DNA of 60,569 nt, counting the filler. It is 4 parts of 4 records of this genome, joined end to end, with 100 filler letters (N's around TTAATTAATTAA, not from the genome) between each part and the next. Parts side by side here need not be neighbours in the genome. Positions count along the whole stretch, not along the records: positions 1 to 27,658 come from DRR723986_4725; 3 more parts are not named here. The stretch is one strand, 5' to 3'. A program made the translations under genes and the position numbers. Position 1 is the first letter of the stretch. Each line of letters opens with the position of its first letter. Positions 1,984 to 50,014 of this stretch are shown here, in pieces. The notes beneath the pieces were generated by a model. That model was not told the origin of the DNA. It worked only from the letters and a program-made list of their open reading frames with translations, and searched no databases.

Positions 1984-2116
1984 ACGGTCTCGAAAGGAAC
2001 CCGTCGCAATGCAGCAAATGCTCCGGGGCGATCGCAGGACCCTTCAACAAACATCTTGGGTTACCCGGCAAGGCGTGATTTAACCGGGCTATCTTCGAGC
2101 GCCTGCGGAGGGCTGA

Positions 2117-2536
2117 ATGACCTCATCCGACACCATGAAACCTGCTCTGGCCAGCCTGGCCCGGACCTGTGAAGCGATCGCCAACGGGCGCTTCGACGAG
2201 GTCGAGGAGCTTTATCAGGTGATCACGGACGAGGGTGTCGAAGCCGATATCCGCGCTTTGGCGGAAACCTTTTCAGGCATGGTCGTGCAGGTAGAGGCAC
2301 GCGAATTCCATTCCAGCCAGCTCATTGCGGAACTGACGGAAACCAAGCGCCAGCTGGAAGCGGCCGAAGCGAAGCTGCGCAAGGAAAATGCCGAGCTGAA
2401 AACCCGGCTGGACAAGTTCGAAGTCACCTACGACAAGGAACAGGCGCAGGCTGAAATCGAACAGGTGAGCGATTCCGACTATTTCCGTTCCCTGCAGTCC
2501 CGTGCCAAGGATCTTCGATCCCGGTACAAGTCCTGA
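2117..2536 (+). CDS. Small stand-alone HAMP-like/coiled-coil protein with a C-terminal 'SDYF..LQ..AKDLR' tail
   Basis: GGAGG RBS; 'LARTCEAIANGRF...IRALAETFSGMVVQVEARE' resembles a HAMP linker; heptad coiled coil follows. Confidence 0.7.
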   Translation: MTSSDTMKPALASLARTCEAIANGRFDEVEELYQVITDEGVEADIRALAETFSGMVVQVEAREFHSSQLIAELTETKRQLEAAEAKLRKENAELKTRLDKFEVTYDKEQAQAEIEQVSDSDYFRSLQSRAKDLRSRYKS

Positions 2537-2565
2537 ACTTTCAAAACATCCTTCGAGATTGATCC

Positions 2566-3339: not shown

Positions 3340-3375
3340 TTCCAGTTGCAGGCCAGGTTGCCGGGTGGTCTCGGC

Positions 3376-4842
3376 TCAGTCCTGCATTTCAAACAGGCCC
3401 TTCAGAAAACTGTCGACGTCTCCAAGGCGTTTGTTGCGGTCGAACTCGAGCGCCTGGCGCAAGGTGTTCCAGGCTTGCGGGGAGAGCCCCTCGACAGGCG
3501 CCAGCACGAGACCTTCCCGCGCGACCTCGTCTATCGGCCGGAACTGGAACGGATGGCCGCCGGTCAGGATCTGGTACGTGATGCAGCCAAGCGCAAAGAC
3601 ATCGTCGCGGGGGTCACGGTCCGCGCGCCGGAATTGCTCGGGGCTTGCGTAGGCCGAGGTCAGGCTATCCCGGATCGGATGGTCCGCACTGGCGGTTGCC
3701 GCTGCCGCCAAGCCGAAATCAAGGAGCTTGATCGTGCCATCCGTCAGCAGAAAGATGTTGCCGGGCTTCAGATCGGAATGAACGACGCCCCGGCTGTGCG
3801 CATGGGACAGACCTGCACAGGTGCCGCGCAGGACCCGGGCGCATTCGCCCAGAGGCAGGGGTTTGCCAAGGGCCCGCCCGATCCGGCGGTCCAGTCCCAC
3901 GCCGTTGAGTTGCTCCATGACGATAAACACATCGGCCTTGTCGCGATCGAAGTCGTAGACGGTGGTGATATTCGGATGTGCAAGTGCCTGAGACTTGCGT
4001 GCCTCGGCCTCCAGAAGCCGCACGGCTTCGGTGTCGTTGCGATAGCTCTCGTTCAGAAGCTTGATGGCGACATAAGGCTGGTCGTGAGCTGCCTCCAGGC
4101 GCCGGCGATCAACGGCTGAATAAACGTGCCCCATGCCGCCGCTCCCGATCTCGGTGTCCAGAATGAACCGGTCACGCAAAATGGAGCCGACACCGGCGCG
4201 TTTCACCTGGGGTGTCGCCAGCTTGTTGACGTCGAGACTGTCTCTTTGTCCGCCGCCGGAAACGCGGCGCGCGTCGGAACGAAACCGGGCACTTTTGAAT
4301 TCGGTCAGATATTTGTCCAGTTTGCCGCTGTCGGCTGGAGGTGGTGTTTCTTCGGCGGCATTCGCGCGTCGACTGCGAAAGCCGGCGTAGCCCGCAACGA
4401 GTGAGGTCAAAATGGCCTCGTCCATCTTGCCCCGTGTTTCGTCATTTGCTGTCTCGCCACCCGTTGCCCCGGCTGGCTCGTTCAACAATGGCAATGGCGG
4501 CAGGTTTGCAGGAGGCGTTGCTGCCTGCTCAGGTGCGGGAGCCGATACGGGTTCCTGCTGTGTGCCGTGAACAGCATGTGGACGTGGCGGATTGTCTTTC
4601 ACGTCGTAACCGGAAGGTTTGGCATCGCCCACCGGCAACTGGTTCTGCAGTCTCTGGCCGAGCTCGTTCGGAAGGTGGCCCGCTTCGACAAAATCCCGGA
4701 TTGCCTGCCGCGTTTCATCAAGGGCGTTCGCTGATTGCTGTGCACCGGTCCGCAGCTGCTTCGACAAGGCGTCATAAGACAGCTTGCCGGACACGAAGGC
4801 GGTTATCAGCGTGCGCGTGGCGGAGGTCATGTCTGACGTCAA
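3376..4842 (-). CDS. Hanks-type Ser/Thr protein kinase, cytoplasmic, kinase domain C-terminal (PpkA-like)
   Basis: GSGGMG, VAIK, HSDLKPGN, DFG, YASPE; Pro/Ala-rich linker; no transmembrane segment seen. Confidence 0.9.
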   Translation of the reverse strand: MTSDMTSATRTLITAFVSGKLSYDALSKQLRTGAQQSANALDETRQAIRDFVEAGHLPNELGQRLQNQLPVGDAKPSGYDVKDNPPRPHAVHGTQQEPVSAPAPEQAATPPANLPPLPLLNEPAGATGGETANDETRGKMDEAILTSLVAGYAGFRSRRANAAEETPPPADSGKLDKYLTEFKSARFRSDARRVSGGGQRDSLDVNKLATPQVKRAGVGSILRDRFILDTEIGSGGMGHVYSAVDRRRLEAAHDQPYVAIKLLNESYRNDTEAVRLLEAEARKSQALAHPNITTVYDFDRDKADVFIVMEQLNGVGLDRRIGRALGKPLPLGECARVLRGTCAGLSHAHSRGVVHSDLKPGNIFLLTDGTIKLLDFGLAAAATASADHPIRDSLTSAYASPEQFRRADRDPRDDVFALGCITYQILTGGHPFQFRPIDEVAREGLVLAPVEGLSPQAWNTLRQALEFDRNKRLGDVDSFLKGLFEMQD

Positions 4843-5312
4843 ATCTGCAGGATCCCTGGCGACAATTCGGCCCGAAGCTTCTCTTGGCCCCGGAACAGGA
4901 GCAGCGGAAGCCGTTGGGGCGACAAAGGTAGAGCTGGGAAAACGCGTGGGGTATGGTTTGCCAGCCGACGCTCAGTATGCGCGCTGCAGTCGTTTTGTTC
5001 CAGCTGGCTTCGCGCATTTTTGCTTGGATGACCTGGGCGTTGATCGGATCGTCGAACGATCCGGGGGCAATTTTTGAAACGCCCATCCACCCCTGATAGA
5101 TTACCCTTACGGCAGGTGATTTATTGGCGAGGGATGAAAGAGGAATTGACTGCGCGCAACCTAGAAATCGGCTCTGCTACACCCTGACCCGCTGCAACGG
5201 TGCGTTGGCACCAGGGGTATGAAACCGACGGCAATATCTTGATCGCGCAAGTCACATTCGCCTTCATGTCAATTTGAGTGAAACTTACAATCATCAATAG
5301 GGGTTGATCGAA

Positions 5313-7076
5313 ATGACCGGGGAAGACGACATCAAAGGCGGGATCGCCAGCTTCTCGATTGGCCTCGGAAACAAGGGTCACGGTGCAGTCCCGATCAAGC
5401 CGGCACCGCCTTTCAGGGTGCTGATCGCAGGAGACTTCGGCCTTGCGGCAACCGGCGTGGCTTTCAACATCACCGGCCAGGACGTCGAGGAAATCCTGGA
5501 ACAGAAAACACCATCCTTTTCCGTCTCGGCGGCCAATATGCTCGGTTCGCATCCACCCGAGCTGGAAGAACAGGTTTCCTTCGCGCGCCTGAAAGATCTG
5601 GCTCCGACAAAACTGCTGCGCGGATTTCGCTTTGTGCGGGATCTTGAGGCGGCTTCCGGTGACCAGGAACAGCTTGCCGTTCATGACCAGCGTTACGACA
5701 AGATCGGCAAGTCGGCACTGGATGAGCAGAAGTCATTGCTGGAAAGACTGCTGAAAGACGACGAATTGCCGACTTCAGAGCAAGGCAAGCGTAAGGAAAA
5801 CGATGCCTCGAGCAGCAGCAAGGGAACCGAGGGGCTCGACGCCCTCCTGTCGATGATCCGCACTCCGGAGGAAAATGCTGCTCCCGGCGAAAGCGGCAGT
5901 GCCGCGAAAACCGCCGTGGATGCCTTCATTCAAAAGACCCTCCAGGAAACGGGCCAGGTTTCAAGTGCACCCGTCGAGGGGAAAAAGAAGGATGCGCCAG
6001 CCGATACGCTGCAGCTGGAACAGGCGCGTCTCTTCTTCGAAAGCCCGAAACTGAGCAAGGTGCTGCTGAACTGGCATGGATTGAACCTGCTCCTGAGTGA
6101 AGTTCCGTTCGACCTGCCGCTGGAACTTCATCTCCTGCAGCTCGATCACGATCTTGATGCCGTCGACCTGCAGGAGGTTCTGGGCGAAACCGGCGAGGCC
6201 CTGCAGGCAGAACTCTACGATATCGCCCTGTTTGCGAACGAAATCGGCCTGGGCCCACGCGACACGGAACGGCTGAAGGTGCTTGCGCGGGAATGCGCCG
6301 AAAGTGACACGGTCGGGCTTGCCGCGCTTGCCGGGCACTTTGCCGGAGTACCGGGTGAGGAAGTTGCCGACATCGAAACGCCACACCAGTTGCTCGACAA
6401 GCCGGGCTTCGAAGGTTTTGCAGGCTTGAGGGCCGGCGATGCCGCCTCTCACCTGGCACTGTTCTGGAACGATGCCCGGTTGACCGCCGAAGAGGACGGC
6501 GCGCCGGCGCTGTTTGTGTCGGGTGCTTTTGTCGCCCTTTCCGAAATACTGGTCCAGCTTGAAACTGAAGTGTTTCCGCGGCTCCCAGTCGGCATGCCGA
6601 AGGATTACGATGCGCTGGAGCTTGTCGAAAGCCGGTCGATGGGCGTTGAAGTTGCCATGGCAACACGGTTTGCCGTCGGTTCGGACACGGCACTGTCGCT
6701 CGCACTTGCCGGCATCAACGTGCTGGAGGGCGTCGCCAACAGAACCAGCCTCGTATTCCGTCGGGCCGTGACGGTCCAGCCCGGCGAGGACGGTCGGGGG
6801 GCACTGGATCAGGCCCTTCTGGTGTCCCGCCTGTTTTCCCTGTTCCAGGAAGCTCTCGGCGAGGCGGTGTTTGCAGGGCAGGATGCTGACGAGCGCGAGG
6901 CTGCCGTTGCAACGAGCCTGGAAGTCCTGAGCAGATCCCTCTCAGACAAGGTCACTTTCGAAGTGGAACGACTGGCGGTGGAAGATCAGGATCTGATTGG
7001 CGTAACGGCAGTCGTGCAGGATGGTTGGGCCTCGGGCCAGCAGCATTCCTTCTATCTGCCGGCTTCCGGCGGCTGA
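5313..7076 (+). CDS. Fused, divergent T6SS sheath-like protein (TssB-like N-terminus + TssC-like region)
   Basis: 'PFRVLIAGDFG...DVEEILEQKTPSFSVSAANML...VSFARLKDLAP' resembles TssB/VipA; 'EQARLFFESPKLSKVLLNWHGLNLLL' resembles the TssC/VipB '...HHPxFQxLExAWRGL' motif; ATG 5313 chosen over TTG 5304. Confidence 0.65.
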   Translation: MTGEDDIKGGIASFSIGLGNKGHGAVPIKPAPPFRVLIAGDFGLAATGVAFNITGQDVEEILEQKTPSFSVSAANMLGSHPPELEEQVSFARLKDLAPTKLLRGFRFVRDLEAASGDQEQLAVHDQRYDKIGKSALDEQKSLLERLLKDDELPTSEQGKRKENDASSSSKGTEGLDALLSMIRTPEENAAPGESGSAAKTAVDAFIQKTLQETGQVSSAPVEGKKKDAPADTLQLEQARLFFESPKLSKVLLNWHGLNLLLSEVPFDLPLELHLLQLDHDLDAVDLQEVLGETGEALQAELYDIALFANEIGLGPRDTERLKVLARECAESDTVGLAALAGHFAGVPGEEVADIETPHQLLDKPGFEGFAGLRAGDAASHLALFWNDARLTAEEDGAPALFVSGAFVALSEILVQLETEVFPRLPVGMPKDYDALELVESRSMGVEVAMATRFAVGSDTALSLALAGINVLEGVANRTSLVFRRAVTVQPGEDGRGALDQALLVSRLFSLFQEALGEAVFAGQDADEREAAVATSLEVLSRSLSDKVTFEVERLAVEDQDLIGVTAVVQDGWASGQQHSFYLPASGG

Positions 7077-7777
7077 GCATCTGTATCCGTCCAAACGGTT
7101 ATCACCGTGATGTCGTCCGAGGATCCGCCGGCCACAGCGCGCGAAACAAGCCGGTCAGCAAGACCGGAGGTTCCCTCGGTGGCCATCCTGGCCAGCGTGG
7201 TTTCGTCCATGCCTTTCAACAGTCCGTCGGTGCAAAGTACAAAAACATCGTCGGGCATCATCTCCAGCGTTCGGCGGTCAAGCTGAAGCGTGTTGTGGAT
7301 GCCGACAGCGGCGGTCAGCCGTCCGGCTTTGTCGGCATGGTCCTCCGAGATGAGGAACAGTTGCTGCTGGCGCAAAAGGTAAAGACGCGAATCTCCGGCC
7401 CAGGTGCAGCTGGCTTGTGTCCCGCTGATGATCAGGCTGAGACTTGTCGTGCCTGAAATGTCTTGTTCGGGGAGAGCGAGAAAACCGGCGTAAAGACCGT
7501 GATTGACGTGGTTGAGCTTGGCTTCCAGGGCAATCTGCCGGGCTTCGTGGCTGCTCGGCGGCATGTTGGTCAGTTGCGAGATTGCGTGAACCGTCGCACG
7601 GCTGGCGACGTCACCCTCTCTGTGACCACCCATGCCATCGGCAATCGTGAAGAGCCCATGCGACGGGGCCGCAAAGTGGCTGTCCTGGTTGACCTTGTGT
7701 CGGCGTCCGCGCCGGGTCGCTGCTTCGGATCGCAGCAACGCAACAGCGGCAGAAGTGTCGACCGTATTCAAACGCAC
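7052..7777 (-). CDS. PP2C/PPM Ser/Thr phosphatase (PppA/Stp1-like)
   Basis: 'NQDS', 'IADGMGGH', 'AGDSRLY', 'LCTDGL', 'SDDIT'. Confidence 0.92.
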   Translation of the reverse strand: MRLNTVDTSAAVALLRSEAATRRGRRHKVNQDSHFAAPSHGLFTIADGMGGHREGDVASRATVHAISQLTNMPPSSHEARQIALEAKLNHVNHGLYAGFLALPEQDISGTTSLSLIISGTQASCTWAGDSRLYLLRQQQLFLISEDHADKAGRLTAAVGIHNTLQLDRRTLEMMPDDVFVLCTDGLLKGMDETTLARMATEGTSGLADRLVSRAVAGGSSDDITVITVWTDTDAQPPEAGR

Positions 7778-8137
7778 GTTCTCCCGAGTAAGGGCCGCAG
7801 GACCAGTCCGGGTTCGATCTTAACGCGCAGTCATTCTCCGGAAAAGAAGTCTCCGGTTTCCAGCCAGGCGCCGGTCATGCTCCTCTGGATGAGGTGACCC
7901 GTCGCAGGGCCCCGATAGCTGTCCTCGGCAAGCAGACCGAACGCGAGCCGGATCGAGACCGGCTGGGAAGCACGCAGAAATTTGCTTATCCCTGGTCTCG
8001 TAGCCTTTCGCGTGATGCGCCTTTATAAAATGTACAAGTTTCACGCCGAAATTGCGTGGCAGATGCTTTCATCGGTTGAAACCGGAGGCTGTCGGCTTTT
8101 TGCAGTCCGGGCACCGATGCAGATTTGGGAAATGGCA

Positions 8138-8494
8138 ATGACCGCAGACGTCGCAGAAATCACCATCGGCCACGAGACGGACGGCGACCTGATCGTTGTT
8201 CGTCCTGTCGGCAAGCTGGACACGCTCAGCGCAAAAACCTTCGAAACCTACCTGAAGAACCTGATCTCGGAAAAGCCGGCAACCTTGCTGATCGACATGG
8301 AGCAAGTGGACTACGTCACCAGTTTCGGGCTGAGATCACTGTTGATCGTTGCCAAGCTTCTGGCTCCTTCCGGAGACAAGCTGGTGCTGTTCCAGGTGAA
8401 CCAGTCGGTGGTCGACGTCCTCAAGATCTCCGGCTTTCTGAAGATCATGCAGGTGGCGGAAAGCCGGGAAGATGCAAAGGCGCTGGCGGGTTGA
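8138..8494 (+). CDS. STAS anti-sigma-factor antagonist (RsbV/SpoIIAA-like)
   Basis: 'GKLDTLSA', 'IDMEQVDYVTSFGLRSLL' with phosphoacceptor Ser, 'DVLKISGF'; start trimmed to ATG 8138. Confidence 0.9.
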   Translation: MTADVAEITIGHETDGDLIVVRPVGKLDTLSAKTFETYLKNLISEKPATLLIDMEQVDYVTSFGLRSLLIVAKLLAPSGDKLVLFQVNQSVVDVLKISGFLKIMQVAESREDAKALAG

Positions 8495-8546
8495 ACGAAG
8501 CTCACACCCGGCAGCTTGAATTGAACAACGTCCGGCAGGGAACGGG

Positions 8547-8972
8547 ATGGTGGATCTCGAGACGGTGACAGTTCGAAACGACCTGGAGGACCTGCCGGCG
8601 GTCTATACCGTGCTGGAGCGGTTCTGCACAGGAGCGGGCCTGTCAGACGCGGTCCGCCGTACCCTGTGCCTGGTCGTTGAAGAGCTGTTCGCCAATACCG
8701 TTGCCTACGGCTATCCGGATGGCGGCAAGGACCAGATCGCGGTCACGGCGGCGCTTGGGCCGACACACGTCAAGCTCGTTCTGTCCGACAGGGCGAGACC
8801 ATTCGACAACAGCGGCATGCCGTCCGGTCCACCGGAAGCGGACACAGTCGAGGACATGGGCATTGGCGGTTTGGGCCTTTATCTGGTGCACCAGCTGGCC
8901 GATGACGTTGCGACCCAACGGATTGGAAACGTCAACCACACCACGGTTCTGGTGCCTCGCGCCAAGGATTGA
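8547..8972 (+). CDS. RsbW/SpoIIAB-like anti-sigma factor Ser kinase (HATPase_c)
   Basis: N-box 'VEELFANTVAYGY', 'SDRARPFD', G-box 'GGLGLYLV'. Confidence 0.9.
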   Translation: MVDLETVTVRNDLEDLPAVYTVLERFCTGAGLSDAVRRTLCLVVEELFANTVAYGYPDGGKDQIAVTAALGPTHVKLVLSDRARPFDNSGMPSGPPEADTVEDMGIGGLGLYLVHQLADDVATQRIGNVNHTTVLVPRAKD

Positions 8973-8999
8973 CGGGCACCTTGCTGCAAGGTGCTTCCC

Positions 9000-9926
9000 T
9001 CAGAAGGCAAATTCCATCATGGAGAAATCGTCCGGCAGGGGCGCATTGTCGTGGAATGCGGCCAGCCAGTCGTAGATGGCTTGAGGGACGGTTCCGTCCA
9101 CGGATTTCGATTTGTCCGCGAGCTCGGCCCAGGTCAGCGTCCGGCCATCCGCATCCTCGATTTCGTACGTACCGTCGCTGATGACAAGCAATCGGTCGCC
9201 CGGGCGAACGTCGAATGTACCGCCATCGAATTCCATATCTGGGATGGCGCCGATAACCATGCCCTCCGGCGTTCCGAGGCCGATGACGTCCAGCCCCGAT
9301 GCCGAAGGCCGCATGAGAATGGCAGCAGGGTGGCCGCCGGAGGCATAGGCCAGTTGCCGGGTCGAGCGCCGGTAGACGCCATACCAGATGGTGAAGAACA
9401 TGTTGTTCTGCCGTTCCATCGGAAAGGCATTGTTCAGTTTGGCAAGAACGTTTGCCGGGTCACGAAAATCGGTGCCCCCAAGCGCATTCGAGCGCAGCAC
9501 GTTGATAATCGCGACAGACAGCAATGCGGCCCCGACACCATGGCCGCAGACGTCGATCAGGTAAATTGCGAAATGATCGTCGTCGAGGTCGTGATATCCG
9601 AACGAATCACCGCCCAGTTCGGTCGACGGCACCAGAAGCCAGTCCGCTTTCGGGGCTTCGGGACGCCTTTCCGGCAGGATGGAATAAACATAATTGCCGG
9701 CATCACGAAGCTCCGCTTCCAGGCGTTCCTGGGTGCGGGTCAGCAGGATGTTGTATTCGGCCAACTGGTCTTCCACGGCCTCGCCATGTTCGATCGTTGC
9801 CTCGTAAAGCAGCTTGAGGTCGTCATGTTCAGCGCGCAATTCCTCAAGTTCTCTGCGCACTCGCGCGAGTTCGCCAGCGGAAGTGTCTGGTTGGGCAGCG
9901 GCGCCAAAATTACTGGTGCTTGTCAT
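9000..9926 (-). CDS. SpoIIE/RsbU-type PP2C phosphatase with N-terminal coiled coil
   Basis: 'ELGGDSF', 'IDVCGHG', 'SGGHP', 'ISDG', 'DDFS'; N-terminal 'LYEATIEHGEAVEDQL' helix. Confidence 0.92.
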   Translation of the reverse strand: MTSTSNFGAAAQPDTSAGELARVRRELEELRAEHDDLKLLYEATIEHGEAVEDQLAEYNILLTRTQERLEAELRDAGNYVYSILPERRPEAPKADWLLVPSTELGGDSFGYHDLDDDHFAIYLIDVCGHGVGAALLSVAIINVLRSNALGGTDFRDPANVLAKLNNAFPMERQNNMFFTIWYGVYRRSTRQLAYASGGHPAAILMRPSASGLDVIGLGTPEGMVIGAIPDMEFDGGTFDVRPGDRLLVISDGTYEIEDADGRTLTWAELADKSKSVDGTVPQAIYDWLAAFHDNAPLPDDFSMMEFAF

Positions 9927-10175
9927 GTTGTAAATATGATGCCTTTACGGACGCGCGGTGGAAACCCAAAGTTTAGAGTTCTGCTGCTATGTTAATGAAG
10001 CAGAAAACATTGGAGCAATCGCGGTTGATATATCCTTGGCAATGAGCGACACCGTATTGTTAAATACATGAATTATCGATGACACGAGTCCAATCGGCCA
10101 AAATTTCCAGCTTTCTCGTATAACAGAAGTGCATCGCTTTGAGGTGCAATTGACCACGCCAGCGGGGGAATAAAA

Positions 10176-10697
10176 ATGCAGGCACCTTCTGAAGGCATAT
10201 CATCAAATTCCGGTCTGCCGCAGATGATTCACCTGGATTTGGACATCAAGGATTTTTGCACCGACTGGACCCATTGCGATCTCATGTCGGGATACATTGC
10301 CCGGATGGTCAGCCACAACCGGCTGGATTCGCTCCTGTTTTCCAATCTCTATTCGTCGGCTTTGAACGAGCTGCTGGAAGCGGTGTACCGCACGCACGGC
10401 TCAGGCGGCAAACTGCAATGCGCGGTTCAGCGCGACGGCAATGTCGACAGGATCGAACTGACTTTCCCTGCGGACGAAGAAACCTACGAGATCTATGAGA
10501 CCGCCATTGCGAAGGTCAACGGCGAGGACGCCGAAACGCTTTATCTGGAAGCGCTGTTTGCCGACGCCGAACCGGATGCGAGCCTGGGGCTCCTGGAACT
10601 CGGCGTGGACTATGGCGCCCGGCTTGCCATCGGACGGAGCGAAGACGGCCGCATGAGCCTGGTTGCAGAGCTCGTGCTTGAGGACGACACAGAATGA
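10176..10697 (+). CDS. Degenerate SiaB/slr1658-like HATPase protein (probable pseudokinase)
   Basis: Aligns by eye with 14257-14802 (W-x-HC-x-L-x-S; NELLE; LGLL-x-L-x-x-DY-x-A-x-L) but lacks the N-box Asn and part of the G-box. Confidence 0.7.
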   Translation: MQAPSEGISSNSGLPQMIHLDLDIKDFCTDWTHCDLMSGYIARMVSHNRLDSLLFSNLYSSALNELLEAVYRTHGSGGKLQCAVQRDGNVDRIELTFPADEETYEIYETAIAKVNGEDAETLYLEALFADAEPDASLGLLELGVDYGARLAIGRSEDGRMSLVAELVLEDDTE

Positions 10698-11872
10698 TCG
10701 CTGATAATATGACACAGGCCTTTCAATGGACCTTCAACGAGAACGATCAGGAGTTCTCGCTCCATGGCAGCTTGCGCCCCCAGCGGGCCGAGGAACTGCA
10801 TGGCTGCTTTTCCGCGATGGAGCAGTCCGTCGCCAAGGTGAGCGGAAAATTCTACGTCAACGTCAGGCGCCTGGTGCGCATGAACAACGTCGCCTTCCAC
10901 GCATTTGCCGGCAAGATCCTGGATCTTGTCCGCAACCGCAGCGATCTGAGCGTTCATGTGACGACGTCGAGTGTCGTCGGCTGGGCAACGCGCAAGTTCG
11001 CCGTGCTGGAGACGATGTCCGACAAGATCACCGTCAGCGAATACGACAACGAGTTCTACCCGGGACAGTCCTTCGTCGAGGACAGTGAATTCATTCATGT
11101 CCTGCGGACACAGACCAAGCTTACCTGGCGCCATGAGAAGGAACTCCTTCGCCGCCACGGCCTGAAGCCGGGAATGCAGGTGGCCGACATTTGCTGCGGC
11201 ATCGGCGATTTCGCCGTGCTCCTGCAGAAGGAGTTCGAGCCGGACCGGCTTGTCGCGCTGGACCATTCCAGATCCAGCCTCGACTACGCACGCCGTGTCG
11301 CCGCCGACTTCGGCATCAAGGGCATTGACTATGTCTTTGGCGATGCCGCGGACATGCTGCTGGAGGACAATCAGTTCGACTTCGTGACCTGCCGACATTC
11401 CCTGCAGGTGTTCGATCAGCCGGAACTGATCCTCAAGGAGCTCTACCGTATCTGCAAGCCGGGTGGCCGCATTTACGTGACCAACGAAAAGAACTCCCAT
11501 TGCCTCGGCGAACCGAGATCGGAGTCTATCCAGTGGACCTATAACGAGGTCGCCAAACTCTGGCACCATTTCGATATGGATATCGAAATCGGCCCGAAAT
11601 GCCGGCGCCTCCTGATCGACGGTGGTTTTGAAAACGTCACCATAGGCTCCTTCATGGTCACCAACACCGACGGCGACCCGCAGGATTTCGCAGACGTCAT
11701 CGCCTCGTGGAAAAATCTCTTTGCCGGCAAAATGGCGCAGGAACGCGGCGACAGCCCCGAGTTCATCGAACGCTTCGCCAAGGGTTTTGATGATCATATT
11801 TTCGCAGCGCTCCACCCCAAGGGGTATGCGGGCTGGCCGATCTGGGTTGCCTCGGGGCGTAAGCCGCTATGA
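10694..11872 (+). CDS. Fusion: SiaC/slr1659-like STAS domain + class I SAM-dependent methyltransferase
   Basis: C-terminal 'VADICCGIG', 'ALDHS', 'GDAADM', 'FDFVTCR', 'CKPGG'; first ~115 aa align with 14834-15172; ATGA overlaps on both sides. Confidence 0.85.
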   Translation: MIADNMTQAFQWTFNENDQEFSLHGSLRPQRAEELHGCFSAMEQSVAKVSGKFYVNVRRLVRMNNVAFHAFAGKILDLVRNRSDLSVHVTTSSVVGWATRKFAVLETMSDKITVSEYDNEFYPGQSFVEDSEFIHVLRTQTKLTWRHEKELLRRHGLKPGMQVADICCGIGDFAVLLQKEFEPDRLVALDHSRSSLDYARRVAADFGIKGIDYVFGDAADMLLEDNQFDFVTCRHSLQVFDQPELILKELYRICKPGGRIYVTNEKNSHCLGEPRSESIQWTYNEVAKLWHHFDMDIEIGPKCRRLLIDGGFENVTIGSFMVTNTDGDPQDFADVIASWKNLFAGKMAQERGDSPEFIERFAKGFDDHIFAALHPKGYAGWPIWVASGRKPL

Positions 11873-14253
11873 ATGCACCGGTAAAGAGCCCTCAGAGTGA
11901 AAAGCAGATAGGTCGCTTTTCCCTGCGAAGCTTTCGCGCCAAGTTCATTCTTGTCGTGGGCGTGGCGGTGCTGTTCGATCTGGCGCTTGCCGGTGGCATC
12001 GGCATCTGGAACGTGCAGAAACTGTCGAGGGATGCAACGGAGCAGGTCGGTGAAGGCCTGACCACCGCGACCGAAGACTATCTGGAAACCTACATCGATA
12101 CGACTGCGTTCCGCGCCGACCTTCTGATCGAGCGCGTTCATTCGGAACTTGCGACGCTTGCCTCGTCGATGCAGACACTGATCGACCACCCGGATATCCA
12201 GGAAGCGGTCGGCAACACGATCGAAGGCAGTTCGGAGTTTTCCTCCGCACTGGTCTACGACGAAAAAGGCGGCTGGTCGCAGAACACCGAGGGTGTTCCT
12301 TCCGCAGTCAGCGTCTGGGGTTACTTGCTCGATGAAGACAAGAACCCGCTTCCCAAGGCCGCAGATGAGCTGAAGAACAGCTCCTTCCTCAGCCTTGTCG
12401 GGCCTTCGATGATGTCGACAGGCGCTCCCAAGCTGCAGATCTATTATGTCGGCCCCAAGGACGCGTCGATCATGCGCGCGACCCCTTATTCGGAACAGGC
12501 GCAGACATTCGACCTGCTTTACCCCGGTCATAACGAGGGCGCGAACTTCTGGGATTTTTTCTTTCCCGGGGTCTACGAAGGTTGGCAAGGCTGGATCAAG
12601 GATCCGTCTTCCAAGCCGGTTGAATCCAATATCGTCACCACTGCTCCCTACATCGACGCGATCACGGGCAAGCTGATCGTCAGCTTCTTTCATCCCCTGT
12701 GGACGCAGGATCGCAAGGACGTTGCGGGCATGGTCGCGGTCGACATCACGCTCGAACAGCTGACTTCGCTCGTCGAAAGCCTTGAGATCTCGGAAAGCGG
12801 CTTCGGCTTCCTGACGATGTCCGACGGCAACGTGGTGGCAACGCCGAAAGCCGGAGAGGCCACACTGGGTCTGGTTTCGAGCGACGTCAGCGGCCAGGGT
12901 GTTACCGGCGTGAACCGGAACCTCAAGGAAAGCAGCCAGCCCGCCATTTCTTCCCTTGAACTCAGTGCCAAGGACGAGACCGTCATCAAGCACATCTTCC
13001 TTGAAAATGACGGTGAAGAGGTCCCCTATCTTCTGGTTCTCAAGCAGCTCAACCCGACCAACCTGTGGGATGGAACCGGCATCACATCGGAAACGATGAC
13101 GCTGGGCTTTGTCGTTTCCGAACGCGAGATCTACCAGTCGCTGATCGATGCCACCAACAACATCTCCGAGGCGACGGCCCGCATCCTGAACTACCAGCTG
13201 ATTGCCTTCTGCGTCAGTATCTTCGTGGTGTTCGTTGCGGTCTATGCCATTTCCGGCCGTATCACCAAGGGCTTGTCGCAATTGGCAGCCGCAGCGCGTG
13301 CGCTGCAGAACAAGGATTACTCGGTTCGCGTTGCTATTCCGACCCGCGACGAGGTTGCGGCCGTGGGGCTTGCGTTTAACCGGATGGCGGAAGAGATCAG
13401 CTATCACACGGAGAACCTTGAAAATCTCGTCGAGGAGCGGACCAGGAAGCTGGAAACAGCGAACCACGAGATCGGCGAGCTCAACAAGCGGCTGAAATCG
13501 GAAAACCTGCGCCTCGGAGCCGAGCTGGATGTCGCCAAGCGCATTCAGGAAATGGTTCTGCCACGGTTGAGCGAACTGGAAGTCATCCCGCAGATCGAGA
13601 TTGCCGCCTTCATGGAACCGGCAGACGAAGTCGGCGGCGACTACTACGACGTCCTGTTCGACGGCAGTCGCATCAAGGTCGGTATCGGCGACGTGACCGG
13701 CCACGGCCTGGAAAGCGGCGTGTTGATGCTCATGGTGCAGTCGGTTGCCCGTGCGCTTCAGGAGAAGGGGGACAAGGATCCGATTGCCTTCCTGGATGTG
13801 CTCAACCGCGCTGTCTACAAGAACATCACCCGTACGAATTCCGACAAGCACCTGACCCTTGCCTTCGTCGACTATGAGGACGGACAGGTCACCTTGTCCG
13901 GCCAGCACGAGGAAGTGCTGATCATTCGTGCCAATGGCGAAACCGAGCGGATCGACACGATGGATCTCGGTTTCCCGGTCGGGCTCGAGGCCGATATTTC
14001 ACCCTTCGTGGCCACACTGGATCTTGCGTTCGGACCCGACGACATCCTGATCCTGCATACGGACGGGATCACGGAAGCGGAAAATGCGAAGGGCGAGATG
14101 TATGGCCTCGACCGGCTTGCCCAGAGCGCCCATGAAAATCGCGAAAAATCCGCTAAAGGTATTGCCGCAGCGGTCATTAATGATGTGAAGTCGCATATCG
14201 GCGACTACAAGGTATTTGATGACATCACTCTTGTTGTCTTGAAGCATAGGTAA
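11869..14253 (+). CDS. Membrane sensor phosphatase: TM-Cache-TM-HAMP-SpoIIE/PP2C (SiaA-like)
   Basis: Two TM helices; dCache-like 'TAPYIDAITGKLIVS...AGMVAVDITL'; HAMP 'RDEVAAVGLAFNRMA'; 'VGGDYYD', 'IGDVTGHG', 'TDGITEA', 'DDITLV'. Confidence 0.92.
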   Translation: MNAPVKSPQSEKQIGRFSLRSFRAKFILVVGVAVLFDLALAGGIGIWNVQKLSRDATEQVGEGLTTATEDYLETYIDTTAFRADLLIERVHSELATLASSMQTLIDHPDIQEAVGNTIEGSSEFSSALVYDEKGGWSQNTEGVPSAVSVWGYLLDEDKNPLPKAADELKNSSFLSLVGPSMMSTGAPKLQIYYVGPKDASIMRATPYSEQAQTFDLLYPGHNEGANFWDFFFPGVYEGWQGWIKDPSSKPVESNIVTTAPYIDAITGKLIVSFFHPLWTQDRKDVAGMVAVDITLEQLTSLVESLEISESGFGFLTMSDGNVVATPKAGEATLGLVSSDVSGQGVTGVNRNLKESSQPAISSLELSAKDETVIKHIFLENDGEEVPYLLVLKQLNPTNLWDGTGITSETMTLGFVVSEREIYQSLIDATNNISEATARILNYQLIAFCVSIFVVFVAVYAISGRITKGLSQLAAAARALQNKDYSVRVAIPTRDEVAAVGLAFNRMAEEISYHTENLENLVEERTRKLETANHEIGELNKRLKSENLRLGAELDVAKRIQEMVLPRLSELEVIPQIEIAAFMEPADEVGGDYYDVLFDGSRIKVGIGDVTGHGLESGVLMLMVQSVARALQEKGDKDPIAFLDVLNRAVYKNITRTNSDKHLTLAFVDYEDGQVTLSGQHEEVLIIRANGETERIDTMDLGFPVGLEADISPFVATLDLAFGPDDILILHTDGITEAENAKGEMYGLDRLAQSAHENREKSAKGIAAAVINDVKSHIGDYKVFDDITLVVLKHR

Positions 14254-14256
14254 GGC

Positions 14257-14802
14257 ATGGTCGAGGATTTTGGAGAGACGGCTGCTTTGAACGGCGGAGA
14301 CGCGAGACAATTTTGTCTCACGCTGATGGCAGAGCCGCTGGAGCTGAGCTGGCATCATTGCGGCCTGACATCGGATTTTATCGGGGAATATTTCAGCAGG
14401 GCTTGCGGCAAAGGCATCGATCCTGTCGATGCGCGCCACAGCATCAGTTACATGATCAACGAGATTCTGGAAAATGCGATCAAGTTCCGTCACGGCGGCG
14501 ACATCGCGATTCACAGCTCGCTGGAAGAACAGACGTTTGAAATCCGGATCGTGAACCGGATCGACCAGGAAACGGCCGTCAAGTTTCAGGGTCACCTGAA
14601 AGCCCTGCTCGACCGCGAACCGGGAGAGCTGCTCCTGGAACGTATCGAGGAGAACGCCCTCAACCCGGACTCCTCCGGCTCAGGCCTGGGTTTGCTCACA
14701 CTTATGAGCGACTACGAGGCCAAATTGGGCTGGTCTTTCGCGTCTGAGCGTGTAAGTGAAGGCGTTGAGTTGACGACATATGCTTCTTTGCGACTTTCCT
14801 GA
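14257..14802 (+). CDS. SiaB/slr1658-like (DUF6272-type) HATPase Ser/Thr kinase
   Basis: 'SYMINEILENAIKF' N-box, 'GSGLGLLTLMSDY' G-box. Confidence 0.8.
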   Translation: MVEDFGETAALNGGDARQFCLTLMAEPLELSWHHCGLTSDFIGEYFSRACGKGIDPVDARHSISYMINEILENAIKFRHGGDIAIHSSLEEQTFEIRIVNRIDQETAVKFQGHLKALLDREPGELLLERIEENALNPDSSGSGLGLLTLMSDYEAKLGWSFASERVSEGVELTTYASLRLS

Positions 14803-14833
14803 TCGCTGACATATTCCAAAGGAAGAAATCACA

Positions 14834-15172
14834 ATGGAAATCAGCACGAACGATTACCGCGTTTGGACTGAAGGCTCCGCCATCCACTACGAAGGAACGA
14901 TGCGGCTTTCAGGAACAGATGCCTACGCACCTATTCTGGACATCATGAATTCCGTTCTGGCGGCCAAGCCGGAACTCATCACCATGGACCTGACAAGCCT
15001 GGAATTCCTGAACAGCTCCGGCATCAACCTGCTCGCAAAGTTCACGATCGAAATCAGAAAGCAGCCGGAAGTCGGCGTTCGGGTTCTGGGCTCCAAGTCC
15101 ATTCCCTGGCAGTCGAAATCACTCCGCAACCTGCAGCGTCTGCACCCGGCGCTTGAACTGACGATTTCCTGA
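14834..15172 (+). CDS. SiaC/slr1659-like STAS phospho-acceptor protein
   Basis: 'GTMRL', 'DLTSLEFLNSSGINLL', 'IPWQSKSLRNLQRL'. Confidence 0.82.
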   Translation: MEISTNDYRVWTEGSAIHYEGTMRLSGTDAYAPILDIMNSVLAAKPELITMDLTSLEFLNSSGINLLAKFTIEIRKQPEVGVRVLGSKSIPWQSKSLRNLQRLHPALELTIS

Positions 15173-15711
15173 TCCCGCACACAGGCGCGTGAGGACGTGC
15201 TGATGCAAGCGCAACGGAAATGCCCGCAGACTTCCGGCTCGGTTTCAAGAAGGCCGGATGAATTGCGCATGTCGCAGGCCTAATATCCGTCCTCGTTGCA
15301 ACAGGCTTTCAGCCGTCCCGCCAGTCTCCCGGACTTGATAGAGAAGATTTCGGCAAGGCCATCCTGATCACGGCGCAGGCCGCAGCTGGCGCTATCAGCG
15401 CCATGAAGGTTGCCTGCAAAGCGACGGTCAAGCGATCGGGCAGGGTCTGCAATCCTGCTCAGAGCCTCAGGCCATGAAGTTCCTGTCGCTGCGGTGCAAG
15501 GCTTTCCACCGCTCGTAATCCGCCAGGCCGGTTCCTGACTTTCCCGTTTCAAAAATCCCTTGGCCGGCAATGCGATCCGGCGGAATATGCGGATTGATCC
15601 GCCGGCTCCCGTGCCGCGGGCAGCCCACCCTTGGCAGGACTGGCGGCATCGCTTTTTGGATATCGTTTCTGTCCTGCTGCTTCTTGTCAGCGCCATCTTC
15701 CGGAGGCCTTA

Positions 15712-16407
15712 ATGACCCTGTCCGCTGAAGCCGTCGAAATCCTGAAATCCGTCAGCACGGCGACACTCACCACGATCCTTCTGAAAAAGGGACTGCGCAA
15801 CGTCTGGATCCGCGGGGCTATGCCGCTCGATCGCTCCAGACCTCGGATCGTCGGGCCGGCATTTACCCTTCGTTTCGTGCCTGCGCGTGAGGACCTGGCA
15901 ACGCCCGCTTCCTGGGGCTCTCCCATTTCGACACGTGCGGCCATCGAGGAGATGCCGGAAGGATGCGTCGCGGTCATCGATGCGATGGGCATCCGCGACG
16001 CCGGTGTCTTCGGCGATATCCTGTGTGCCCGTATGCGCAAACGCAATGTCGCTGGCATGGTCACAGACGGCACAGTGCGCGATCTGGCCGGTGTGCTGGC
16101 GTCGGATCTGCCGGTCTGGTGCAGCGGTGTCTCGGCTCCGCCTTCGGTGGCCGGTCTAACCTTCGTCGGCTGGCAGGAAACCATCGGCTGCGGCGGTGTT
16201 GCGATCATTCCGGGCGATATCATTGTGGCAGACGGCGATGGTGCGGTTGTGATCCCAGCAGCCACGCTTGATGACGTGCTGAAAGAAGCCCCGGAACAGG
16301 AACGCATGGAGGCCTGGATCGTCGAGCAGGTCGACGCAGGTGCGAAGCTGCCGGGCCTTTACCCGATGAACGAGGAAACCAAAGCGCGCTACGAAGCCGA
16401 ACGCTGA
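15712..16407 (+). CDS. RraA family / HMG-CHA aldolase-like protein
   Basis: 'GPAFTLRF', 'GVFGDIL', 'TDGTVRD', 'PGDIIVADGDG'; GGAGG RBS before ATG 15712. Confidence 0.85.
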   Translation: MTLSAEAVEILKSVSTATLTTILLKKGLRNVWIRGAMPLDRSRPRIVGPAFTLRFVPAREDLATPASWGSPISTRAAIEEMPEGCVAVIDAMGIRDAGVFGDILCARMRKRNVAGMVTDGTVRDLAGVLASDLPVWCSGVSAPPSVAGLTFVGWQETIGCGGVAIIPGDIIVADGDGAVVIPAATLDDVLKEAPEQERMEAWIVEQVDAGAKLPGLYPMNEETKARYEAER

Positions 16408-16455
16408 GGGGCGTCGGATGCCGGGATCTGCATTCGATAAGGGAATCTGACGACG

Positions 16456-17640
16456 ATGCCGCCCGGCTGCCATGCCTCTTCCGGCCAGACTGTTCTGATA
16501 ACGGGTGCTCGCGCGCCTGTTGCCCTGCATCACGCCCGGCTGTTTCATGCCTCTGGTTGGCGTGTTGTTCTGGCCGATATGCCCGCGCGCCCAGTCTCCC
16601 GGGCAAGTCGTGCCTGCGCACTCTATCAGCGTTTGCCATCGCCAAGGTTTCATCCGGAAGATTTCACTGATGCGCTCGAGGCGCTGATCGAACGCGAAAA
16701 GCCGTCCCTGATTGTCCCGACCTGCGAGGAGGTCTTCTACCTGGCGGCAATCCGGGAAAGGCGCGGCCTTGGGGCGGAACTGTTCGCGCCAGGTCTCGTC
16801 CTGCTTCAGACGTCCCATAACAAGCATGACTTCATCAGGTTGTGTGAAGGGTTCGGGATTGCCGTGCCCGAAACACGGCTGCTGACGTCTCGGGAAGATG
16901 TCACCAACCTTGGCAAGCAGGCCGAAAACCTTGTGTTCAAGCCCGTCTGGTCGCGCTTCGCCGGTCAGGTCCTTGTGTCGCCAGCGTCCCGCAAGTTGAA
17001 GCAGGTGGTGCCGAGCGCTGCAATGCCCTGGGTCGCCCAGGAACGGTTGGAAGGAGACGAGATCAGTGCCTACGTTCTGGCGCGCGACGGCAAGGTGCTG
17101 GCAGTGTCGATATACCGTTCGCTATACCGGGCCGGTGCTGGCGCGGGGATCTGTTTTGAACCGGTAACGGACCCGGCAGCACGGGCTGTTATCGAAACAT
17201 TCGTCGGGAACACCGGTTGGACCGGGCAGGTTTCGTTTGACCTGATGCGCCTTGAAGACGGCTCTGTGCGCCCGCTGGAATGCAATCCGCGCGCGACCAG
17301 CGGCCTGCATTTTTTCAAGGACGCGGCCCGGTTTGTCCGCACGCTTTTGCAAGGCGGTGACGAAGTCTTGCCGGACGTAGCAGGCAATCAGGCCGTGCGG
17401 CTGGCCATGTGGGTCTACGGTCTGCCTTCAGCGCTCCGCTCACGAGACTTTGCCCGTTTCCGGGAGGTTCTCGGTGCGGCCGAGGAGATCCTCGGAACCT
17501 CGGACGATCCGTCGCCGGGGCGTGCTCAAATACCTGCCTTGCTGGAAATCGCGACCATAGCCATGCGCAACCGGATCAGTCTTCAAAGCGCCACCACGAG
17601 GGACATCGAGTGGAACGGGCCGGATCAAAGTTCGATGTAG
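16456..17640 (+). CDS. ATP-grasp domain protein
   Basis: 'VLITGARAPVAL', 'VPTCEE', 'HNKHDF', 'FKPVWSRF', 'WVAQE', 'LECNPRATSG'. Confidence 0.85.
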   Translation: MPPGCHASSGQTVLITGARAPVALHHARLFHASGWRVVLADMPARPVSRASRACALYQRLPSPRFHPEDFTDALEALIEREKPSLIVPTCEEVFYLAAIRERRGLGAELFAPGLVLLQTSHNKHDFIRLCEGFGIAVPETRLLTSREDVTNLGKQAENLVFKPVWSRFAGQVLVSPASRKLKQVVPSAAMPWVAQERLEGDEISAYVLARDGKVLAVSIYRSLYRAGAGAGICFEPVTDPAARAVIETFVGNTGWTGQVSFDLMRLEDGSVRPLECNPRATSGLHFFKDAARFVRTLLQGGDEVLPDVAGNQAVRLAMWVYGLPSALRSRDFARFREVLGAAEEILGTSDDPSPGRAQIPALLEIATIAMRNRISLQSATTRDIEWNGPDQSSM

Positions 17641-18614
17641 GCCCTTCTGGGGGACACTGCCGCATCTGGCAGCTCGCCTTTTTCAATTGCTGCGATGTCC
17701 CTTCGCAAATAGTCGAGCGGTCCGATCAGAGGTTTTGCGTCCGGAAAGCGCGCCGCGTTTTCAAGCGAGGATTTCAGCACGCGGCGGTCTTGTTCCAGAG
17801 CGATGCGGAACATCGGCTGAAACATCCAGGACTTGACCCGGTCGAGCAGACCCTCGTTCGGTCCGATCAGGCAACCGATACCTTCAACAAGTCCGTCGGC
17901 CGCCTGCCGCAAATGGAAAGTGGTTGCAAGTGCAAGGCCGTTTTCGCCCCAATATTCCAGCTCGGCGATACCGGGAAAGCGATACCGCCCGACAGTCCGC
18001 ACCCGTCCGGCTTCCAGCAGCCTGCTGATCAGGCCGTGCTGCCGGTCCTCCCCGGTATAGACGGCCTCGACCCAGCCAGGCCCACCGGTGATATCGACCC
18101 GAACCCGATGCCGCTTGCTGCTGAGGCCGCGCAGCAGGCCCTTGTGGGTGAAATGGGTATGGGTCGCATCGAGGATGTTTTCGGCAGCATCGATCAATGT
18201 CGAGTTGGTGCTGCTGCGCACGAGGCGCACCACTGTCTTTCTGCCTTCCATCGGGTGCAGGTAGGGTTCACCTGAGGGGTCTCCATTGGAAAGAAAGACC
18301 ACGCCGTCCTTCACGAAGGTCTTGAGGCCGGGAATACGGTACCCCGGCACGTCGCCCATGTGTCCCGGAATGGCGGTGCAGCGTCCGCCGCCGTCAAAAC
18401 GCCAGCCGTGATAGGGGCATTCGATCTCGCCTCCGACGACCTTTCCTTTCGACAGTTCCATCAGCCGGTGCGGACAACGGTCGGCCAGAGCCGAAATGCC
18501 GGACGCGCTCTTGAACAACACCACAGGTTCGCCGCCGAATTCGACACGGGCCGGTCGGCGCTTCAAATCCTTCACGAGCGCCGCGGCCTGCCAGAAATCC
18601 CTTGATGAAGTCAT
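17625..18614 (-). CDS. Rieske non-heme iron oxygenase
   Basis: Rieske 'CPHR...CPYHGW'; mononuclear Fe site '[13 protein letters not shown]'. Confidence 0.92.
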
Positions 18615-19759
18615 AGGTCGAAGGCCTCCAGAAGGGGAATGCCGATGCGCGACAGAAGTTTTTCGAGGCTTCGCACTGCCAGTTGCCTGCGCCGGGACAG
18701 ATGGCCCGCATAGACGGCGTTGAACTCGATTTCCGATTCTGCCCCGCGCAGCCGTTTGAAGTGGCCGGCGCCCGCGCTCATGTTGAAAAAGAGAGTGTGC
18801 CGGTCTGCAATGTCCTGGCCTGCCGCCATGACCAGCCGGTAGAGCCCGTCTTTCAGCGGCAGGCGGGTGTCGTATCCAACCAGCGGCTGCGTCAATGTGC
18901 GGCCGTTGGCAAAGAAACCGGCTACCGCCACCAACTGGCCACTGTCATCGCGATAACCAAGCAGTTGGAACAGGCCTCTGCGGTGGCATTCCCGGATGTA
19001 GGTTGCGGTGTACTGCGGATTGAGCGGTGTGTACTTGTCGAGATAGAGCATCTTGTAGAGCTCCGCGGCACGGTCAAAATCCGAACCCTCGAAGCTGTCG
19101 TTTTCCGCGAGCCGATAGGGCGTCTGTTGCATCAGCCTTATGTCGTAACTGCGGTTTTGCGTCGGCCGTCCTGGTGTTTGGTCACCGGAGTAGAGATAGA
19201 TCCGTCGTGCCGCCAGAAGCCTGAACCCAGCTTGCCTGAGGGCGTTCATCGATGACCGGTCCGCCCGGCCATTGAGCGAGCGGATGACAATGGCATGCTC
19301 TGGATGGCGCTGAGACAGGGTTCTGGCGATCTCGCGGGCTGCGGCTGCATCGATTTCCGGAACTGGATTGGTTGATAGCAGCCAGTTGTTCACCTGCACC
19401 TGTCGATCAAGCCCGCTGGCCGCGATCAGCGGCGCACAGGCCCGGATCAGCGGTCGCACCAGATGGTAGGTCAGTGGCGACTTCAGGAAATTGCGCGTTT
19501 CCTCGATTGCATAGTCGATATAGGCAGCGCTTGGTGAACAGATGTAACACGTCGGCGGACGGCTTGGTTCGTTGATCGTCACCGGAAAACACCGCCCTGC
19601 AATCTCCAGCGAGCTGACACGCGTCGTGAGGTTGGCAACAAGATCAGGCATGGCAAAGTCCTTGCACAAACGCACGAAGGCATGAACGGTCTCGGGTGCG
19701 TTGCTCACACCTCCATTGGCCGACGTGTCCCGCATGACCGTATCCTGCGCTGTGGTCAT
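18611..19759 (-). CDS. Conserved hypothetical protein, probable GNAT/FemAB-like fold
   Basis: 'VNNWLLSTN', 'LYLDKY..LNPQYT', 'PLVGYD', '[14 protein letters not shown]'; ATGA-coupled within the operon. Confidence 0.65.
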
Positions 19760-50004: not shown

Positions 50005-50014
50005 CCCAAGTGGA

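Follow-up and report, generated by a model that had tools for sequence, protein, structure and literature searches.

To our knowledge, the partner switches known so far end on sigma factors, on diguanylate cyclases or, recently, on a glycosyltransferase. The only experimentally studied homologue of the locus described here is the hexacistronic partner-switching operon bgrRSTUWV of Sinorhizobium meliloti pSymB, which Baena et al. 2019 (Environ Microbiol 21:3379, doi 10.1111/1462-2920.14624) reportedly described. The locus itself is a cassette of five genes, named g1 to g5 in 5' to 3' order, at positions 10176-15172 of a DNA stretch of 60,569 nt (the window; all window coordinates count along this whole stretch). 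Judged by its sequence, the cassette is a relative of the bgr operon that lacks the cyclic di-GMP (c-di-GMP) enzyme of that operon. Its first two genes appear to encode degenerate copies of the products of its last two, and the degenerate STAS copy is fused to a methyltransferase that looks intact.

In the accessible parts of three reports (PMC7647112, PMC8457831, PMC13438883), BgrU and BgrW set the phosphorylation of BgrV, and the target is the diguanylate cyclase BgrR. Among the same three, the roles assigned are phosphatase for BgrU, kinase for BgrW and STAS phosphoprotein for BgrV, and deletion of bgrV is described as derepressing BgrR. No role for BgrS or BgrT was found in the accessible parts of the literature citing the operon; the original report may state one.

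The pSymB replicon of S. meliloti 1021 (454177-469325, locus L127) contained a GGDEF-EAL gene followed by homologues of g1 to g5 in the order of the window and on one strand, and the g2 homologue was 65.0% identical to g2 over residues 10-392. The record is unannotated, and the segment at 458.8-465.6 kb was inferred to be the bgr operon because the order and kinds of its six genes fit R-S-T-U-W-V. The five genes for BgrS, BgrT, BgrU, BgrW and BgrV have the same order as g1 to g5. The operon has the GGDEF-EAL gene bgrR in first place, whereas the window has a divergent gene for an RsbU-type PP2C phosphatase there and no bgrR-type gene. A preliminary description of the window had known of no earlier account of such a phospho-switch-to-methyltransferase output. 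For the cassette as a whole this was wrong, since bgrRSTUWV is published and the same genes are present on pSymB. Three points appear to be new relative to the accessible bgr literature: the bgrR-less form is widespread and apparently ancestral, the BgrS- and BgrT-like proteins are degenerate copies of the kinase and the antagonist, and the cassette has its conserved centre in the methyltransferase.

All five genes were on the plus strand: g1 (10176-10697, 173 amino acids (aa)) encodes a BgrS-like protein with the GHKL/SiaB kinase fold, predicted to be catalytically dead; g2 (10694-11872, 392 aa) a BgrT-like fusion of a STAS-like domain and a class I S-adenosylmethionine (SAM)-dependent methyltransferase; g3 (11869-14253, 794 aa) a BgrU-like membrane sensor phosphatase; g4 (14257-14802, 181 aa) a BgrW-like GHKL Ser/Thr kinase of the slr1658 family; and g5 (14834-15172, 112 aa) a BgrV-like single-domain STAS protein of the slr1659 family, predicted to be the phospho-switch. 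Two successive 4-bp ATGA overlaps (g1/g2 and g2/g3), a gap of 3 bp (g3/g4) and one of 31 bp (g4/g5) connected the genes, which confirmed the reading frames and the tight linkage given in the preliminary description. The junction pattern recurred across 10 related genomes, with the g1/g2 overlap kept in nine of the 10. A sigma-70-like promoter match just upstream of g1 (10150-10177, plus strand, 9/12 hexamer matches) was weak, as four such sites occurred in the region where 2.0 were expected, and a terminator scan gave nothing useful. Altogether, 14 RNA-library runs contained the stretch, all as assembled contigs. In three of the four runs examined these contigs were 10-65 kb and cannot show a transcript. 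In the fourth (X6) a contig spanned 10018-13859, from g1 to g3, which is compatible with co-transcription and no proof of it.

The SiaABCD system of Pseudomonas aeruginosa shares with the cassette a membrane PP2C sensor with a HAMP domain, a small GHKL-type Ser/Thr kinase and a small phosphoprotein. Sia switches an enzyme by protein binding, and the structural model of g1 was closest to SiaB. According to a micro-review on Sia, unphosphorylated SiaC acts by direct binding to the enzyme SiaD. The likeness of g3-g5 to SiaA-SiaB-SiaC that had been drawn earlier held for the architecture and failed for the families: g3 reached 127.4 bits with the SiaA model (cut-off 700), g4 reached 17 bits with the SiaB family model (cut-off 85), and g5 had no Pfam match to SiaC (PF09345), matching STAS/slr1659 instead. 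Sia has neither an extra dead kinase nor a STAS-methyltransferase fusion, and the window has no SiaD-type GGDEF gene.

The RsbU-RsbV-RsbW and SpoIIE-SpoIIAA-SpoIIAB switches of Bacillus share the logic of a PP2C phosphatase, a GHKL kinase and a STAS antagonist. Unlike these, the cassette is without a sigma factor, appears to assign the roles of binder and kinase to two different paralogues, and has as its presumed target an enzyme to which a STAS mimic is fused. Protein family scans of the window revealed no sigma factor gene between 5304 and 19759, and neither within the cassette nor next to it did they reveal a GGDEF or EAL gene, in agreement with the earlier statement that both kinds were missing.

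The closest families were those of the slr1658/slr1659 superfamily (NF047703, NF047705; Synechocystis slr1658), to which the preliminary description had likened g4 and g5. Both proteins passed the superfamily cut-offs of 100 bits, g4 with 174 bits and g5 with 142 bits. The g1 protein (E 2.1e-24, 85.9 bits) and residues 8-113 of g2 (E 2.4e-6, 27.8 bits) stayed under the cut-offs; by this test they are related to the two families and are not members of them. In the accessible part of its report, disruption of slr1658, there named a 'putative two-component system gene', led to poorer recovery from iron limitation. An operon in a genome from another class of the phylum (G655; locus L126, contig C193, 4485-9140, minus strand) combined a SiaD-like GGDEF gene with genes for an slr1658-family kinase, an slr1659-family STAS protein, a PstS-like binding protein and a 619-aa PP2C. 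Its kinase passed the cyanobacterial equivalog cut-off with 253 bits. The operon contained no pseudokinase and no methyltransferase fusion, and its use of the kinase/STAS pair was Sia-like. With a SiaD-like cyclase beside the pair there, the output that the pair serves therefore differs from lineage to lineage.

The relation between g1 and g4 was recovered at several levels. The two proteins were 27% identical by BLASTP (E 1e-7), and comparison of the g1 family with the g4 family by hhalign (10 orthologues each) gave a probability of 96.8% (E 2.8e-10). A Pfam scan of g1 yielded no match. The AlphaFold2 (AF2) model of g1, with a predicted local distance difference test score (pLDDT) of 82.7, had as its top structural match SiaB from the SiaB-SiaC complex (6kko_B; Z 12.9, root-mean-square deviation (rmsd) 3.3, 148 residues aligned), followed by the anti-sigma kinases SpoIIAB, UsfX and RsbW (Z 10-11); ATP domains of histidine kinases matched at Z 7 or less. 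SiaB was solved with a STAS-like substrate, and the anti-sigma kinases with their antagonists. Motifs were counted in the window protein together with 80-83 related sequences per protein. All 81 g4 sequences kept the N-box (NE..EN), and 80 of them had the Ser-Gly-Leu-Gly core, the remaining one having Ser-Gly-Ile-Gly. In g1 the position of the N-box Asn was occupied by V, T, A or I in 84/84 sequences and the Gly-Ser-Gly of the G2 box was missing. Thus, from the features of RsbW/SpoIIAB-type kinases (GHKL fold, N-box Asn, Gly-rich ATP lid), g4 showed the full set and g1 the fold only. The g1 protein is predicted to be a GHKL kinase fold (Z 10-13) that has lost the ATP-binding motifs and is catalytically dead. 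Additionally, a Trp-x-His(-Cys) motif was present near the N-terminus of both g1 (window 10260-10280) and g4 (14350-14370). Its Trp and His were invariant or nearly so in both families, and its Cys was invariant in g1 and variable in g4.

A parallel relation connected g5 with the N-terminal domain of g2 (10694-11068, plus strand, residues 1-125), a STAS-like domain of slr1659 type without the phospho-acceptor Ser. Plain BLASTP of g2 against g5 gave no significant match; when the two families were compared by hhalign, the g2 N-domain aligned with g5 over 98 columns at a probability of 95.0% (E 3.7e-8). The g5 loop LNSSGIN (residues 59-65) was identical in 81/81 sequences. The g5 profile matched solved anti-sigma antagonists (RsfB, 8ih8_A, E 9.5e-4), and the first Ser of the loop aligned with their conserved Ser. 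As in SpoIIAA and RsbV, this residue is presumably the phospho-acceptor. Like RsbV/SpoIIAA-type antagonists, g5 is thus predicted to have a STAS domain whose helix 2 begins with a phosphorylatable Ser. In the g2 N-domain the position of the first Ser was Asn in 81 of 84 sequences, that of the second was Ala, Val, Thr, Leu or Ile, and that of the Gly was Ala in 83 of 84. The AF2 model of g2 (pLDDT 88.3, predicted template modelling score 0.79) gave the N-domain the secondary structure b-b-a-b-a-b-a-b, an arrangement that a STAS domain should have. Fold searches with the whole model returned matches that were all taken up by the methyltransferase domain, and in the ESM Atlas the N-domain fell with STAS-like and SiaC-like clusters at 0.78-0.79, below the trustworthy level. 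Among 1.84 billion representatives the N-domain had 33 matches. All four of those with 300-400 aa (303, 324, 389 and 393 aa) carried a methyltransferase domain, and by these matches the N-domain seems essentially confined to the front of this methyltransferase. A 2295-aa Ig/OmpA protein without a methyltransferase also matched (E 5.7e-5), probably by chance.

The C-terminal part of g2 (11069-11872, plus strand) comprised a class I SAM-dependent methyltransferase with a cap domain. Residues 165-262 matched Methyltransf_11 (E 6e-19), and residues 139-284 matched several class I methyltransferase families of Pfam at E 1e-17 to 1e-19 (Methyltransf_11/25/31, Ubie_methyltran). Residues of the SAM motifs were invariant in 35 sequences (D165, G169, G171, D190, G216, A218, D229 and P256-G257-G258-R259), and D217 was nearly so. 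With a Rossmann-type fold and these motifs, g2 has the hallmarks of a class I SAM-dependent methyltransferase, and the enzyme looks active and intact. Residues 137-392 were superposed on 3mgg from Methanosarcina mazei with Z 27.8 and rmsd 2.4 over 249/253 residues at 23% identity (E 1.3e-16 by sequence). This structural genomics entry, for which a function is not given, has a methyltransferase and a cap like those of g2 but no STAS domain. The next structural matches were small-molecule and peptide-carboxyl methyltransferases (Z 20-22), and the modelled fold is that of these enzymes. None of the NCBIfam equivalogs reached its cut-off with g2. The database name 'UbiE' was unsupported, as the best score for a UbiE/MenG quinone methyltransferase was 70 bits against cut-offs of 158-420.

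The preliminary description had called g1 and the N-terminus of g2 degenerate paralogues of g4 and g5, had expected structural searches to link the gene at 10176 to that at 14257 and the N-terminus of the 10694 product to the 14834 product, and had named g2 a STAS copy fused to a SAM methyltransferase. Profile comparison gave both links, the hhalign profiles together with the lost motifs bear out the degenerate paralogy, and Pfam, the slr1659 model and the fold matches agree on the fusion.

Two hydrophobic stretches of g3 (about residues 21-49 and 436-469) flanked a periplasmic part of about 390 residues. The order of parts in g3 was a first transmembrane segment, a Cache-like periplasmic domain, a second transmembrane segment, HAMP, a coiled coil and PP2C. 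SpoIIE/PP2C was matched with 129 bits and HAMP with 46 bits, and dCache_1 with 38 bits, under its cut-off of 45. The Asp and Gly motifs of the PP2C domain were invariant across 10 orthologues.

The cassette was conserved as a unit. A scan of species-representative genomes yielded 330 relatives, and locus counts out of 80 refer to the best 80. All of these were from Hyphomicrobiales: Roseibium, Labrenzia, Stappia, Rhizobium, Ensifer, Sinorhizobium, Mesorhizobium, Phyllobacterium, Aminobacter, Devosia and Aestuariivirga. The first three genes were adjacent and co-oriented in 80/80 loci, and all five genes were present in 77, the contigs of the other three ending inside g3. The five-gene order, and with it the co-occurrence of genes 1-2 with genes 3-5 on which the preliminary description had relied, was therefore kept in 77/77 loci long enough to show it. 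Among 301 sampled genomes of the order, 10 contained a full-length g2 homologue and an eleventh match covered the methyltransferase part only. In all 10, g1-g5 were complete and in order, and the flanks differed. The slr1659 model passed its cut-off in three of 301 sampled alphaproteobacterial genomes; all three carried the whole cassette, and two of them belonged to another family. The g2 protein of the window was 98% identical to that of Roseibium aggregatum IAM 12614. Across the 80 cassettes the mean pairwise distance rose from the methyltransferase (0.26) through PP2C (0.40), g5 (0.42), the periplasmic domain (0.61), g4 (0.73) and the g2 N-domain (0.74) to g1 (0.91). With the lowest distance, the methyltransferase is the most constrained and slowest-evolving part of the cassette. 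In one Labrenzia metagenome-assembled genome (L060, about 8035-10545) the g3 homologue lay in two open reading frames, and in Mesorhizobium kowhaii (L096, about 10299-11090) the g4 homologue was split; frameshifts, pseudogenes or errors in the assemblies may account for this.

The flanks upstream of the cassette differed between lineages. A BgrR-type GGDEF-EAL gene was found in 35/80 loci, about 100-150 bp upstream and on the same strand. In the window the neighbour is a gene for a soluble RsbU-type PP2C (9000-9926, minus strand, 308 aa, divergent from g1; Pfam SpoIIE 131 bits), followed outward by one for an RsbW-like kinase of anti-sigma type (8547-8972, plus strand, 141 aa; HATPase_c_2 E 3e-22) and one for an RsbV-like STAS anti-sigma antagonist (8108-8494, plus strand, 128 aa; Pfam STAS 61 bits, TIGR00377 passed with 65.9 bits). 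Divergent orthologues of the RsbU-type gene (55-78% identity) lay upstream in 34/80 loci and in both outgroup genomes, and within this context an upstream STAS gene was present in 23/80 loci and an RsbW gene in 22/80. The RsbU-type PP2C is the commonest neighbour of bgrR-less cassettes. Neither a BgrR-type nor an RsbU-type neighbour was present in 11/80 loci, including R. aggregatum IAM 12614 and one locus (L058) cut by a contig end.

A FastTree phylogeny of g2 and g3 with 80 rows was rooted on two genomes of another family. The bgrR-linked cassettes, including that of S. meliloti, formed one starred nested clade of 36 of the 80 rows. The outgroup and all basal clades had an RsbU-type neighbour or none, and never a linked bgrR-type gene. 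With that root, the linkage to bgrR was therefore a single late gain. The bgrR-less cassette is widespread and, on this tree, apparently ancestral. In the genome used for genome-wide comparison (G001, 98% identical to the window over 18 kb), the BgrR-type protein of pSymB had 49 GGDEF/EAL matches, none of which covered its residues 1-140.

The reading preferred here, held tentatively and with confidence a little short of even, is that the phosphorylation state of g5 moves g1 on and off the decoy STAS domain of g2 and so controls a methylation. A periplasmic ligand at the Cache-like domain of g3 would set the activity of its PP2C domain. The g4 kinase would phosphorylate g5 on the first Ser of the Asn-Ser-Ser-Gly loop, and g3 would remove the phosphate; these two steps are inferred from the motifs and from the reports on BgrU, BgrW and BgrV of S. 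meliloti. The g1 protein would form a stable 1:1 pair with the non-phosphorylatable STAS domain of g2, and this pairing would set methyltransferase activity. Unphosphorylated g5 would compete with this decoy for g1, so that g1 would occupy the enzyme or leave it according to the phosphorylation state of g5. An RsbW-type protein is both a kinase and the binder of the target; here g4 would have the first role and g1 the second, and the target would carry a mimic of the antagonist. In one derived clade that includes S. meliloti, the BgrR-type GGDEF-EAL protein would have been added as a further or alternative target. The methyltransferase, which the preliminary description had likewise taken for the output, is favoured in this role because no bgrR-type gene is linked to the cassette here and because the methyltransferase is its most conserved part. 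The wiring is compatible with the bgrV phenotype if the state of g1-g2 also feeds BgrR in the derived clade.

Several observations count against this proposal. The canonical G1 box of g4 was not seen by eye in its sequence, and the competence of g4 as a kinase is predicted from its other features. Ser stands at the acceptor position in 3/84 g2 sequences, and Thr at the next position in 14/84. The STAS fold of the g2 N-domain is proposed from profiles and modelled secondary structure. Partial correlations between distance matrices were 0.66 for g1-g4, 0.64 for g1-g2N (the g2 N-domain), 0.54 for g2N-g4, 0.48 for g1-g5, 0.42 for g4-g5 and 0.30 for g2N-g5, and they single out neither the g1-g2N nor the g1-g5 pairing. 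The FastTree root depends on two genomes, and another root would change the ancestral state. In the accessible parts of its literature, the bgr system targets BgrR through BgrV, and g1 and g2 could be accessory.

The last point leads to an output elsewhere, which is possible and yet doubtful. The phosphorylation state of g5 would then control an unlinked cyclase or the neighbouring RsbU/RsbW/RsbV-type module, with g1 and g2 as accessories, for example a branch for feedback or for sensing SAM and S-adenosylhomocysteine (SAH). Control of BgrR by BgrU, BgrW and BgrV is what the accessible parts of the cited reports describe (PMC7647112, PMC8457831, PMC13438883), and the operon of genome G655 places an slr1658/slr1659 pair beside a SiaD-like GGDEF gene and a PP2C gene in the absence of g1 and g2. 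The divergent RsbU-type gene, often accompanied by RsbW and STAS genes, offers a local target in the 34 loci and two outgroup genomes that have it, and the 49 GGDEF/EAL matches in G001 could include an unlinked one. However, g1 and g2 were never missing (80/80), whereas both external candidates were clade-specific or absent, and the 11 loci with neither candidate (L058 being cut by its contig) include the close relative R. aggregatum IAM 12614, in which the 8-kb segment with the RsbU-type set is missing. The strong constraint on the methyltransferase domain likewise speaks against an accessory part.

A direct action in the manner of SiaC is improbable. Unphosphorylated g5 would bind g2, or the complex of g1 and g2, and activate it, and g1 would be a permanent subunit that is not exchanged. 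The precedent of SiaC, which binds SiaD directly when unphosphorylated, the translational coupling of g1 and g2, which suggests a fixed 1:1 complex, and the far higher conservation of g5 than of g1, as expected if g5 contacts several partners, all fit such an arrangement. It leaves unexplained why the enzyme bears a degenerate version of g5 and has as its partner a degenerate version of the g5 kinase, a pairing that suggests competition for one interface. That g1 and g2 are a constitutive enzyme-chaperone pair merely co-transcribed with the switch of g3-g5 is very improbable: the RNA contigs run across the genes without demonstrating one common transcript or any regulation, and the cross-talk is deduced, yet both gene sets co-occur in fixed order in several families (77/77 loci long enough plus two outgroup genomes), 3/3 alphaproteobacterial genomes passing the slr1659 cut-off carry the full cassette, and paralogy links g1 to g4 and the g2 N-domain to g5.

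A broader generalization of the competition for g1 was also considered and is unlikely as a whole. In it, the ancestral and universal output of bgrSTUWV-type cassettes would be SAM-dependent methylation and not c-di-GMP, controlled by mimicry, with a non-phosphorylatable copy of the antagonist carried on the enzyme and a dead copy of the kinase being swapped. BgrR would be a late, clade-specific addition, and in bgrR-less genomes the pseudokinase might have a second, RsbT-like role and activate the RsbU-type phosphatase encoded next to the cassette. If a methyltransferase is indeed switched through a decoy STAS domain and a pseudokinase, this would be a new type of output for partner switches, and the cassette would clearly exemplify how duplicated genes divide their labour. 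The bgr system of S. meliloti would then be reread, with BgrS and BgrT as the conserved core and BgrR as an add-on of one clade. The cassette is widespread in marine Stappiaceae and plant-associated rhizobia, and the methylated product could matter for surface or symbiotic lifestyles.

In a plasmid collection, 120 records of plasmids or chromids carried a g2 homologue, 80 of them from Sinorhizobium, 24 from Rhizobium, 9 from Ensifer, 6 from Aminobacter and 1 from Phyllobacterium. In S. meliloti GR4 the homologue was on two records. From these records, the rhizobial cassette is often located on secondary replicons. Nothing pointed to the cassette as mobile or defence DNA, for which no dedicated PADLOC scan was made.

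Upstream of the cassette, an 8-kb segment (window about 1928-9907) was present in the window and in G001 and missing in R. aggregatum IAM 12614, where its flanks were about 350 bp apart. In addition to the STAS, RsbW-like and RsbU-like genes, the segment contained genes for a ParA/MinD-like ATPase (2566-3339), a Hanks-type Ser/Thr kinase (3376-4842, minus strand), a 590-aa protein with a weak VipA-like match (5304-7076) and a Stp1-like PP2C (7052-7777, minus strand). It looks like a variable signalling island. Downstream of the cassette, positions 15631-19759 encoded an RraA-like aldolase, an ATP-grasp protein, a Rieske-domain protein and a 382-aa protein without a family match. These genes were common to the closest relatives only (0-4/80 loci) and therefore are not parts of the cassette. 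Towards the end of the window, G+C content climbed from about 0.55-0.62 to 0.62-0.70 over the last 14 kb (about 46000-60569).

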